Source: Thermoplasmatota archaeon (GTDB lineage: Archaea; Thermoplasmatota; Thermoplasmata; Thermoplasmatales; Thermoplasmataceae). Taken from it: a DNA stretch of 64,000 bases. The stretch covers positions 16 to 64,015 of the forward strand of contig JAMCPQ010000023.1 in assembly GCA_023379825.1 (NCBI GenBank), given 5' to 3'. This document shows, piece by piece, positions 1 through 3,419 of this stretch (position 1 is the first letter of the stretch; each line of letters opens with the position of its first letter). The notes beneath the pieces are model-generated. The model was not told where the DNA came from. It was given only the letters and a program-made list of their open reading frames with translations, and did not search any database. The position numbers and the translations under genes were made by a program.

Positions 1-61
1 GTTCGAACCCCCGACCTATGGATTAAGAGTCCATCGCTCTACCTGACTAAGCTACGGACCC
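1..61 (-). tRNA. tRNA-Lys(CTT), 3' end cut off by the window edge
   Basis: Reverse complement reads GGGTCCGTAGCTTAGTCAGGTAGAGCGATGGACT-CTT-AATCCATAGGTCGGGGGTTCGAAC; D arm, anticodon arm and T-loop present. Confidence 0.93.
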
Positions 62-127: not shown

Positions 128-254
128 TTTAAATATGCTCTTGGGTTAACGGTACACTTCAACCATACACTATGGGCAATGCTATATGGCAACCCAGTAG
201 ATGAATCAATCTTTTGATCTCATCAGACAGTGTAACGGTCAATGGTGAATTCGA
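128..254 (+). promoter_or_regulatory. TATA box (TTTAAATA) and ~95-nt structured 5' leader of the ribosomal superoperon
   Basis: TTTAAATA at 128-135; helices 166-171/229-234, 173-183/188-196, 200-209/214-224; SD GGTGA before ATG 255. Confidence 0.6.
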
Positions 255-1244
255 ATGGCAACGCCACATCACCCCAGACGGGGATCAATGGGATATTACC
301 CTAGGGTAAGAGCAAAGAAACTGCAAGGTGACATAAGGAGCTGGCCCGAGACTGAAGGCAATCCAAAACTTCAGGCCTTCGCAGGCTACAAGGTAGGAAT
401 GACTCATGTCGAGGTTGTAGACTATCGTAAATCCAGTGTCACTGCTGGACAGAACATAATGATGCCAGTAACAGTTGTAGAGGTTCCACCTCTTTCTGTT
501 GTAGGAATAAGATATTATGAAGAATCAGAAGAGGGTTTGTTCATCTCAGGGGAGAAATGGACAAAAGAAACAGACAAGAATCTCCAAAGGAGATTGCCTC
601 CTAGGAAGAAAGATCCATCATCTCCGGAAGTAACAAATGTTTCTGATGTAAGGCTTATAGTCCATACAAACCCATCCAAAATTACCGGAGTGCCCTCTAA
701 ATCTCCTGAAATTTTTGAGATAAGAATAGGCGGTTCAGATCTTTCAGCAAAGATGAAATATGCTGAGGAAAAACTTGGAAAGGAGATCAGTTTTTCCGAC
801 TTCAGTGCTGCCGGTAATTTTGTAGATGTAATAGGAGTGACCAAGGGGAAAGGTTTCCAGGGCCATGTTAAGAGATTTGGTGTTAAGTTACTTCCGAAGA
901 AGAACAGGAAACACAGGAGAATGATAGGTACTCTGGGGCCATGGCATCCTGACTGGGTCAGAAATACTGTACCTCAGGCTGGTCAGGTGGGAACCCACCA
1001 GCGCACAGTGCATAATATACGTGTAATAAGGTTTGCAAAGAATGAGAACGAAATGGACGTTAATGTAAAGGGAGGATACCCAGGTTATGGTCTGGTCAGG
1101 ACAGATTACGTCCTTCTTCATGGATCTATTCCTGGCCCAAACAAGAGGCTTATAAAGCTGAGAGAGCCAGCAAGACAGAAGACTCCTGCAGTCAGCAACC
1201 TCAGCGTCTCATATGTTTCCAGGGAATCTAAACAGGGTGATTAA
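255..1244 (+). CDS. rpl3: 50S ribosomal protein uL3
   Basis: HHPRRGSMGYYPR, FAGYKVGMTH, VTKGKGFQG motifs. Confidence 0.98.
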   Translation: MATPHHPRRGSMGYYPRVRAKKLQGDIRSWPETEGNPKLQAFAGYKVGMTHVEVVDYRKSSVTAGQNIMMPVTVVEVPPLSVVGIRYYEESEEGLFISGEKWTKETDKNLQRRLPPRKKDPSSPEVTNVSDVRLIVHTNPSKITGVPSKSPEIFEIRIGGSDLSAKMKYAEEKLGKEISFSDFSAAGNFVDVIGVTKGKGFQGHVKRFGVKLLPKKNRKHRRMIGTLGPWHPDWVRNTVPQAGQVGTHQRTVHNIRVIRFAKNENEMDVNVKGGYPGYGLVRTDYVLLHGSIPGPNKRLIKLREPARQKTPAVSNLSVSYVSRESKQGD

Positions 1245-1246
1245 AC

Positions 1247-2008
1247 GTGAAAGTTAATGTATATTCAAAAAGCGGAGAGAAGAAAGGGGAGGTTGACCTT
1301 CCACCTGTATTCTCCTTTACGCCCAGAGTTGATCTTGTGAGAAAGGCATTCAATGCAATTTCACTCTCACTTAGGCAACCATATGGTTCTAGCCCCACAG
1401 CAGGAATGAGAAGAGTGGGTCACAATGCTGGACCCGGACATGGTACCGCAAGGATCCCCAGAACATCTGGGTCATCAACTGCAGTACTTCTGGCAAACTT
1501 TGTCAAGGGTAAAAGTGCACATTCCCCAAGGACCGAGAAAGTCCTCTTTAAAGGAATCAACAGAAAGGAGAGAAAGATGGCAAAGTTCAGTTCTATTGCA
1601 CTCACATCCAGCAAGGAAGCTGTCAAGGCAAGAGGTCACAGGATTCCTGAAGAAATCACTCTTCCCGTGGTTGTTGAGGATGCCATAGAATCAATAAGGA
1701 GGACAAAAGACGCTGTTGAGTTCCTTGAATCCATTGGGCTTTATGATGATGTCCAGAGGGCAAAAGATGGAACAAAGGTCAGAGCAGGACGCGGAAAGAT
1801 GAGGGGGAGGAGATACAGAACCCCGAAGAGTGTACTGATCGTTGGAAACAATTATGATAATCTCCGGGCTTTTAAATCTCTGCCTGGAGTTGATATTGCA
1901 ACCTATTCAAGCATGAGCATAAGGAAGCTTGCTCCAGGAGGAGTTGCGGGAAGGCTGACCATTTTCACAGAATCCTCACTGAAACAACTGGATGGTGAGA
2001 AGCAGTGA
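1247..2008 (+). CDS. rpl4: 50S ribosomal protein uL4
   Basis: GHGTARIPR, RAGRGKMRGRRY, LAPGGVAGRL; GTG start; operon position. Confidence 0.98.
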   Translation: MKVNVYSKSGEKKGEVDLPPVFSFTPRVDLVRKAFNAISLSLRQPYGSSPTAGMRRVGHNAGPGHGTARIPRTSGSSTAVLLANFVKGKSAHSPRTEKVLFKGINRKERKMAKFSSIALTSSKEAVKARGHRIPEEITLPVVVEDAIESIRRTKDAVEFLESIGLYDDVQRAKDGTKVRAGRGKMRGRRYRTPKSVLIVGNNYDNLRAFKSLPGVDIATYSSMSIRKLAPGGVAGRLTIFTESSLKQLDGEKQ

Positions 2009-2259
2009 CAACAGATCTGATAATTAGACCGATAGCCACAGAAAAGACCATGCTGCAGATGGAAAGAGAGAACAAACTCTCGTTCTATGTTGACAGAAGA
2101 TCAAGAAGAGATGAGATTAAGAAGGAAGTGGAAGAGAGGTTTGCAGTCAAGGTACTTTCCGTGAACATTGCCATAACAAAAAGGGGAAAAAAGGCAGTTG
2201 TAACACTTTCCTCTGAATTCTCTGCAGATGAGATAGGGGGAAGAATAGGAATATTCTGA
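2005..2259 (+). CDS. rpl23: 50S ribosomal protein uL23
   Basis: IIRPIATEK...KKAVVTL...IGIF. Confidence 0.97.
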   Translation: MTTDLIIRPIATEKTMLQMERENKLSFYVDRRSRRDEIKKEVEERFAVKVLSVNIAITKRGKKAVVTLSSEFSADEIGGRIGIF

Positions 2260-2268
2260 GGTGAATTA

Positions 2269-2961
2269 ATGGGAAAGCATATTGTAGCACAGAGAAGAGG
2301 AAAGGGAGGGCTTGTTTATAGAAGTCCCAGTCACAGGCATCTCGGAGAGATAAAACTTGCTGATGAAGGCTCATACAAGGTTAAGCAGTTGATACATGCA
2401 CCTGGAAGGAACACTCCAATCATAGTGCTTAACAGAACAGACGGTGAAAGAAGACTTCAACTTGCATTTTCAGGAGCCTATGTTGGTCAGGAGCTTACTT
2501 CTGGAGAGGGTGCAGCCCCGGAAATAGGAAACACTCTGGCACTGGGGAGAATTCCTGACGGATCTTACGTTCATAACATTGAGAGTATGCCGGGAGATGG
2601 AGGGAAGTTTTGCAGAACCGGAGGAAGCAGTTCACTTGTGGTAAGCCATGGTCTTACTGTATCAGTGAGACTACCCTCTGGAAAGATGAAGCAGTTCAAC
2701 CCTATGTGCAAAGCAACTATTGGTTTTCTTGCAGGATCAGGAGCAAAGGATATTCCTGTTCTTAAAGCAGGAAAGAAGACTCACTATCTAAGGAGCAAGG
2801 CAAGAAGGCCATATTCTGTAAGAGGAGTTGCCATGAATGCCGTAAACCACCCACATGGGGGAGGAAATCACCAGCATGTAGGAAGAGCCAGTACAGTGGG
2901 AAGAGGTACTCCGCCTGGAAGGAAGGTTGGAAGACTATCACCTAAGAGGAGGAAATCCTAA
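2269..2961 (+). CDS. rpl2: 50S ribosomal protein uL2
   Basis: [23 protein letters not shown]. Confidence 0.98.
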
Positions 2962-3419
2962 TGGCGCAGAATAAGCAGGCATCTGTAAAATCAATAAAGA
3001 GGAGATCACGAAAGTCCCAGAAGATAGTAATGGGGAGATCCAAGGAGTTCAAATACAAGGGTTACTCCCTAGAGGAACTCCAGAAGATGGATCTCCAGCA
3101 GGTAATGAGCATACTCCCATCTAGACCAAGAAGGAGTTTGAAAAGGGAGAAGAATCACGAACAGACCATCGTATACGAGAAACTTCAGGACCCATCTGTG
3201 ACTGAGTACAAGACTCATGTAAGGGATGTTGTAATTCTTCCAAAATCAGTGGGGAAGGTCATGGAAGTGTATAACGGGAACAGCTACGTGAAGTTTGAAA
3301 TTCGCCCTGAAATGATAGGGCATTTCCTTGGGGAGTTTGCCCTTACAAGAAAGGCAGTCAAACATTCCGGACCTGGTGTCGGTGCAACAAGATCTTCGAA
3401 GTTCATGCCGTTGAAGTGA
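2961..3419 (+). CDS. rps19: 30S ribosomal protein uS19 with basic N-terminal extension
   Basis: [30 protein letters not shown]. Confidence 0.98.
   Translation: MAQNKQASVKSIKRRSRKSQKIVMGRSKEFKYKGYSLEELQKMDLQQVMSILPSRPRRSLKREKNHEQTIVYEKLQDPSVTEYKTHVRDVVILPKSVGKVMEVYNGNSYVKFEIRPEMIGHFLGEFALTRKAVKHSGPGVGATRSSKFMPLK

Follow-up and report, generated by a model that had tools for sequence, protein, structure and literature searches.

Gene content of the locus

The window (the whole 64,000-nt stretch of Thermoplasmatota DNA analysed here) begins with part of a tRNA gene and, on the opposite strand, the head of a ribosomal protein (r-protein) operon.

1-61, minus strand: 5' part of a tRNA-Lys(CUU) gene, divergent from uL3 and cut by the window end (Rfam tRNA, 46.9 bits)
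255-1244, plus strand: uL3 (rpl3; Pfam PF00297, E 8e-77)
1247-2008, plus strand: uL4 (Pfam PF00573)
2005-2259, plus strand: uL23 (Pfam PF00276)
2269-2961, plus strand: uL2 (Pfam PF03947)
2961-3419, plus strand: uS19 (Pfam PF00203)

The tRNA-Lys gene is complete in the family member L001 (positions 2-76; ARAGORN). A gap of 193 nt lies between the tRNA gene and the start of uL3, and it contains a TTTAAATA box (128-135) and the RNA element studied here (162-239). Because the tRNA-Lys gene has its own likely TATA element (aaatttataa at 85-94, within 62-127 of the window), the gap appears to carry two back-to-back promoters.

The leader folds into a three-way junction

The initial annotation had paired the leader by hand into a three-way junction, and this drawing turned out to be the exact minimum free energy (MFE) fold, with all three helices in place. 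The junction was obtained from 153-260 at -27.4 kcal/mol (z -2.09) and again from the core, 162-239, at -22.9 kcal/mol (z -3.13), a value equalled by 1 of 200 dinucleotide shuffles. Its parts are the following.

162-171, plus strand: 5' strand of P1, with ACC in the outer helix, A165 in the internal loop and UACACU in the inner helix (MFE folds)
162-164 (ACC) with 237-239 (GGU), plus strand: outer helix of P1 (MFE folds)
A165 opposite A235-C236, plus strand: 1x2 internal loop of P1 (MFE folds)
166-171 with 229-234, plus strand: inner helix of P1 (MFE folds)
173-196, plus strand: P2, with a UGGG/CCCA base, CAA (177-179) opposite A192, a UGC(U)/(G)GCA upper helix and an AUAU loop
200-224, plus strand: P3, a 10-bp hairpin with a bulged C219 and an apical UUYUG motif (212-216)
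229-239, plus strand: 3' strand of P1, with AGUGUA in the inner helix, A235-C236 in the internal loop and GGU in the outer helix

A kink-turn of the kind found in L7Ae-binding leaders was considered for P2 and rejected: after the CAA bulge, U-G-C pairs with G-C-A, and there are no tandem G-A (GA/AG) pairs. The energy z-scores are by themselves suggestive; the comparative data make the case and are decisive.

The junction is conserved and covaries among relatives

A uL3 protein search across 40 relatives yielded 30 loci, the upstream regions of which were compared. Within the family, the same words recur upstream of uL3 in the order ACCAUACAC..GGGCAAUGC..GCAWCCC..hairpin..GUGUAACGGU. Sister families have a fully compensated P1, GCCAGACGCC...GGCGUCACGGC. 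When the cores of 29 relatives were folded, each alone and unconstrained, the same three-way junction was recovered.

We then quantified pairing with covariance models. Model R1, seeded solely with the window and its near-identical relative, recovered 26 of the 30 loci with a single match each, always at the uL3 leader. In the resulting alignment 94.7% of cells were paired, compared with 29–40% when partners were slid, none of 500 shuffles reached the observed value, and compensatory (double) changes were present in 22 of 26 pairs. A class-wide alignment of 57 sequences behaved in the same way (92.9% paired versus 29–40% with slid partners; 0/500 shuffles reaching the observed value). In this larger alignment all ten pairs of P3 showed compensatory changes. 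The upper helix of P2 was 100% paired with double changes in 3/3 pairs, and P1 alternated between UACAC/GUGUA and GACGC/GCGUC. Both alignments were fitted to the model, and the independent single-sequence folds of the 29 relatives guard against circularity. The independent folds and the pair counts bear out the earlier proposal that a structured leader precedes the uL3-uL4-uL23-uL2 operon, and show that this leader is conserved and covaries. We conclude that the structure of this leader is far above chance and that it is an undescribed structured RNA with strong support.

Invariant nucleotides of the element

Some positions never change across the 57 sequences. These are, on the 5' side, the second C and the A of 5'-CCA and the A-C of the inner helix; on the 3' strand of P1, the G, A, C and G of 'G-U-N-A-C-G-G'; and, in P2, the central G-C pair, set within a nearly invariant GGG/CCC. 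The consensus of P1 is (N)NCC-A-[G/U]AC.. / ..GU[C/A]-AC-GGN(N). P2 consists of GGG, [C/A][A/U]A, a covarying helix of 3–4 bp, one nucleotide and CCC, and is cut down in some families to a plain GGG-loop-CCC hairpin. The stem of P3 is free in sequence and its apical U-rich UUYUG loop is conserved. Family f21 (L194-L196, L352) keeps P1 and P2 in a motif of 54–60 nt and has lost the P3 hairpin, so P3 is dispensable in at least one lineage, despite the conservation of its loop elsewhere. Because unpaired nucleotides are invariant over 57 sequences, the pattern points to recognition by a specific partner, not to stability alone.

Distribution across Thermoplasmatota

Using model R2, we obtained matches in 105 of 151 genomes of the order, one per genome save for a single genome with matches on two contigs, and in 85 of 151 genomes of the class, again with one match in each. 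Model R3, a covariance model built from the 57 sequences, matched 99 of 151 genomes of the phylum, with exactly one match in each. Each of the 69 matches whose surroundings were checked precedes uL3; 30 of them come from the order, 19 from other orders within the class and 20 from outside the class. Where the strict whole-genome filters had missed a family, reading or searching its uL3 upstream regions directly mostly revealed the motif.

Several lineages depart from this pattern. The one genome with two matches (G109, contigs C20:12-93 and C89:38545-38623) may be a mixed bin or carry a duplicated operon head. The clearest exception to the presence of the motif is the GC-rich family f17, with 0/15 matches, counts that include one unpublished genome (G242) from which no sequence was used. 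Two of the three f17 upstream regions that were read (L340-L342) have no obvious motif; in L341 the sequence GCCAGACCCGG...CCGGGGCACGGC, some 200 nt ahead of uL3, may be a distant form of it. R2 matched 0/26 in family f3, where uL3 of locus L030 is preceded by a divergent three-way junction with a P2 of UGGC-GAUAGU-GCCA; the loop word GAUAG recurs in 23S helix 20 (GGGUGAUAGCCCC). A contig from a hypersaline metagenome gave a weak R3 match (L255:13983-14053; 12.5 bits, E 1.5), GGACCACACG...CGUCACGGUCA, away from its site for the Rfam family RF03135.

Predicted promoter and distance to the start codon

Upstream and downstream of the junction, the gap contains the following signals.

128-135, plus strand: predicted archaeal TATA box TTTAAATA of the uL3 operon promoter, a TTTAWATA-type box conserved in relatives
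159-162, plus strand: predicted transcription start, at or 1-4 nt before P1, from TATA-to-start spacing
243-247, plus strand: Shine-Dalgarno sequence GGUGA, 3 nt after P1 and 7 nt before the ATG

The spacing between TATA box and transcription start in archaea is about 24 nt, and it is on this basis that the box is assigned a promoter role and the start is predicted. In 16 of 21 family members, 24–28 nt separate the end of the TTTAWATA-type box from the start of P1. Because the predicted start falls at or 1–4 nt before P1, the motif is predicted to be the very 5' end of the mRNA and to be wholly transcribed. The geometry of the TATA box thus agrees with the leader position assigned at first, the element lying wholly downstream of the predicted promoter.

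In the window's family a GGUGA-type Shine-Dalgarno sequence follows P1 by 1–9 nt. It is unpaired in the MFE fold of 160-257, and the centroid structure keeps the inner helix of P1, P2 and P3. In other orders and classes the motif lies 60–320 nt from the start codon, with further possible helices between. In other orders of the class (L185, L186, L187-L189), the 60–110 nt separating motif and ATG hold apparent helices, such as GCUGUG...CACAGC, or CUAUC...GAUAG around a Shine-Dalgarno-like GAGGG, and in family f12 a CGUCUG word in the spacer is complementary to the 5' strand of P1. These spacer helices and the f12 word may act as an additional regulatory module or offer P1 an alternative partner.

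Comparison with Rfam and the L4-Archaeoglobi leader

No Rfam 15 family, r-leaders included, matched the element in the window or its relatives (cmscan), even at E<=10 on a 107-nt query, and full-text searches of a library of papers found no description of it. The closest known leader is L4-Archaeoglobi (RF03135), a candidate r-leader that Eckert and Weinberg (2020, PMC7247131) described ahead of rplC-rplD-rplW-rplB in Euryarchaeota, the same gene order that Pfam assigns to the open reading frames downstream of our element. Both are three-way junctions with a variable third hairpin. In both, P1 is broken by an asymmetric internal loop, the 3' side of which is AC here and mostly N-A-C (CAC, GAC or AAC) in RF03135, and P2 starts at the junction as GGG...CCC with a 3-nt 5' bulge opposite 1 nt. 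In haloarchaeal rows of RF03135 this bulge is literally CAA, as here (GGGU-CAA-U-UGCG...UGCA-A-C-ACCC). These likenesses were judged by eye, from the published SS_cons and rows against the column counts of our 57 sequences, and involve no statistical test.

There are also differences. The outer helix is conserved as CUGAN/NUCAG in RF03135, which has a larger internal loop; here it is (N)ACC/GGU(N) and the loop is 1x2. In the window itself it is just ACC/GGU, without CUGAN/NUCAG; some other families, such as that of L187, read CUGACC/GGUCAG. Many examples of RF03135 overlap a methyltransferase gene, unlike those in Thermoplasmatota.

Searches with the models gave the following results. The RF03135 model, which detects Haloferax volcanii as a positive control, produced no match at E<=10 on positions 150-256 of the window or on one class member, and none at E<=1 on 20 loci. 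Among the 151 class genomes none reached its gathering threshold of 34.5 bits, and the eight weak matches were not near uL3 (families f15, f17 and f18). Conversely, R2 and R3 had no match at the motif in 16 haloarchaeal loci with the RF03135 core; with filters off, the best result at these loci was a local alignment of 4.4 bits in the right register. The published L4-Archaeoglobi alignments contain no sequence of the Thermoplasmatota type (PMC7247131). Membership in RF03135 therefore fails in both directions of the reciprocal searches, and because these failed, the relation between the two leaders rests on inspection. We regard the element as a variant of the archaeal rpl3-operon leader that is new, spans the phylum and falls outside RF03135 as currently modelled. 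It is probably either distantly related to RF03135 or a site for the same protein that arose by convergence.

Comparison with ribosomal RNA

Leaders that bind r-proteins often, though not always, mimic the rRNA site of their ligand, and rRNA was searched on this account in several ways. Motif words, allowing up to 1 mismatch, revealed no specific conserved mimic in 23S rRNA, and scans of rRNA with descriptors of the P1 loop and of P2 returned nothing conserved. R3, run with filters off on the 23S, 16S and 5S rRNAs of three relatives, gave no match inside an rRNA. A P2-like pattern, GGG-YRAU...CCC, fits 23S helix 20, which we take to lie in the uL4 site of domain I. Because a census of GGG...CCC hairpins turned up at least three more in rRNA that fit this loose pattern, the likeness of P2 to helix 20 is only a lead. 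The H18-H19-H20 junction of 23S rRNA was rejected as a model for the element, as the order of its arms differs. The 23S, 16S and 5S rRNA genes are unlinked in complete relatives (G014, G010, G029); in G014 they are located at 1.0436, 1.0544 and 1.377 Mb, respectively.

Discussion

We propose, with a probability of about 0.6, that the uL3 operon mRNA carries in its first ~80 nt a three-way-junction binding site for an r-protein encoded downstream, and that this site provides feedback. By precedent, uL4 is the most likely ligand, followed by uL3 as the product of the adjacent gene; gene order cannot tell one from the other because every example precedes uL3-uL4. When rRNA is limiting, free r-protein would bind the junction. 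It would presumably contact what does not vary there: in P1 the A / AC internal loop, in P2 the GGG-CAA...N-CCC base and perhaps, in P3, the UUYUG loop. In the window's family, where P1 ends 1–9 nt before the Shine-Dalgarno sequence, the bound protein could for this reason sterically bar the 30S subunit from the start of uL3. Less uL3 would then be translated, and less from the downstream genes, which are closely packed and probably coupled. The default state would be ON, because the Shine-Dalgarno sequence is open in the free RNA. Blocking the Shine-Dalgarno sequence in this direct way cannot serve as a general mechanism, because outside the window's order the motif stands 60–320 nt from the start codon. 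The analysis itself establishes the fold and how widely it is conserved, its occurrence once per genome, its fixed location ahead of uL3 and its place right behind a conserved TATA box. Protein binding, the identity of the ligand and repression by occlusion we infer from the precedents of uL4 acting on the E. coli S10 leader (PMC10931766) and of the archaeal candidate leaders (PMC7247131).

Archaea offer an example of an r-protein leader in the L1 mRNA site of Methanococcus. Other archaeal r-leaders are S15-Halobacteria, S15-Methanomicrobia and eL15-Euryarchaeota (PMC7247131). Like the present element, they are lineage-wide structured 5' UTR elements that are thought to bind the encoded protein. 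They differ in their genes, folds and sequences, and they show recognisable rRNA mimicry, whereas none was found here. In E. coli, uL4 represses the S10 operon via its leader (PMC10931766). That system, which we take as our functional model, resembles ours in that a structured leader heads an operon with uL3 and uL4, autogenous control being known for E. coli (PMC10931766; PMC3616713). The E. coli leader combines NusA-dependent attenuation with translational repression, is confined to Gammaproteobacteria and has a different fold. We found no evidence of an attenuator of this type in the window: no terminator-like site was predicted in 62-254, and no Rfam L4 leader matched.

The initial annotation had favoured a translational switch, in which the Shine-Dalgarno sequence would be covered by pairing of ACCAU with AUGGU, or P1 would face competition from another UACACU, toggling the ribosome-binding site between open and closed. 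Both complementarities exist in the window, and ACC can always pair with the GGU of GGUGA. However, the second TACACT (153-158) is absent from relatives and, because it is upstream of the predicted start, is probably not transcribed. The 5-nt ACCAT/ATGGT pairing is real in the window, but among the 21 family members it occurs only in L001, L002 and L006; the others have just 3–4 nt, the ACC/GGU that any GGUGA Shine-Dalgarno sequence supplies. As the pairings are not conserved, TACACT lies upstream of the start and GGUGA is unpaired in the predicted free RNA, we reject the switch, which appears highly improbable.

The predicted position at the 5' end of the transcript suggests another role, in which a cap-like fold would shield this highly expressed mRNA from 5'-3' exonucleases or direct an activating endonucleolytic cut, with no r-protein feedback involved. 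The fold begins at or a few nucleotides from the predicted transcript start, the motif is far from the start codon in other orders, and processing of r-protein 5' UTRs is reported to stabilise and activate the mRNAs in a methanogen (PMC5499594). Yet a protective hairpin would not need invariant unpaired A / AC and GGG-CAA nucleotides or a conserved UUYUG loop throughout the phylum, nor would it be restricted to a single mRNA per genome, and we consider this role unlikely. The same single-copy distribution, at the head of the longest r-protein operon, would suit a site that recruits a non-ribosomal factor to the machinery of transcription or translation, for example a processive anti-termination or elongation factor for read-through of the ~20-gene superoperon, or a ribosome-assembly factor; the invariant loop nucleotides and the failure to find an rRNA mimic would fit as well. 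Against this, no linked non-ribosomal gene stands next to the motif in the loci that were read, the precedent for leaders of the uL3 operon is r-protein feedback, and we know of no such recruitment system in archaea; this possibility seems to us quite remote. Neither the protective nor the factor-recruiting role sits easily with invariant loops in an element confined to a single mRNA per genome.

Returning to r-protein feedback, the resemblance to RF03135 allows an evolutionary reading that we find doubtful but worth stating. The Thermoplasmatota motif and RF03135 could be diverged forms of one ancient euryarchaeal uL3-operon leader that predates the split between Thermoplasmatota and Halobacteriota. 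Its GGG-YRA(U) arm would imitate 23S helix 20 (domain I, the presumed core of the uL4 site), and feedback by uL4 would be ancestral. If this is true, uL4 feedback would be shared in principle with bacteria and realised by an independent RNA.

Collectively, our analysis makes an r-leader function of the element probable. Only four candidate r-leaders have been described for archaea (PMC7247131), and among archaeal r-leaders there is no proven mechanism for the main uL3-uL4 superoperon. The element is present in single copy in most sampled genomes of a whole phylum that includes cultured acidophiles such as Thermoplasma, Picrophilus and Ferroplasma. Adding a covariance model of it to Rfam would close a gap there and help to annotate Thermoplasmatota genomes better. 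It also provides a concrete RNA of 80 nt, with about ten invariant nucleotides, for studying the balance between r-proteins and rRNA in archaea, and opens a direct test of whether uL4-type feedback is common to bacteria and archaea.
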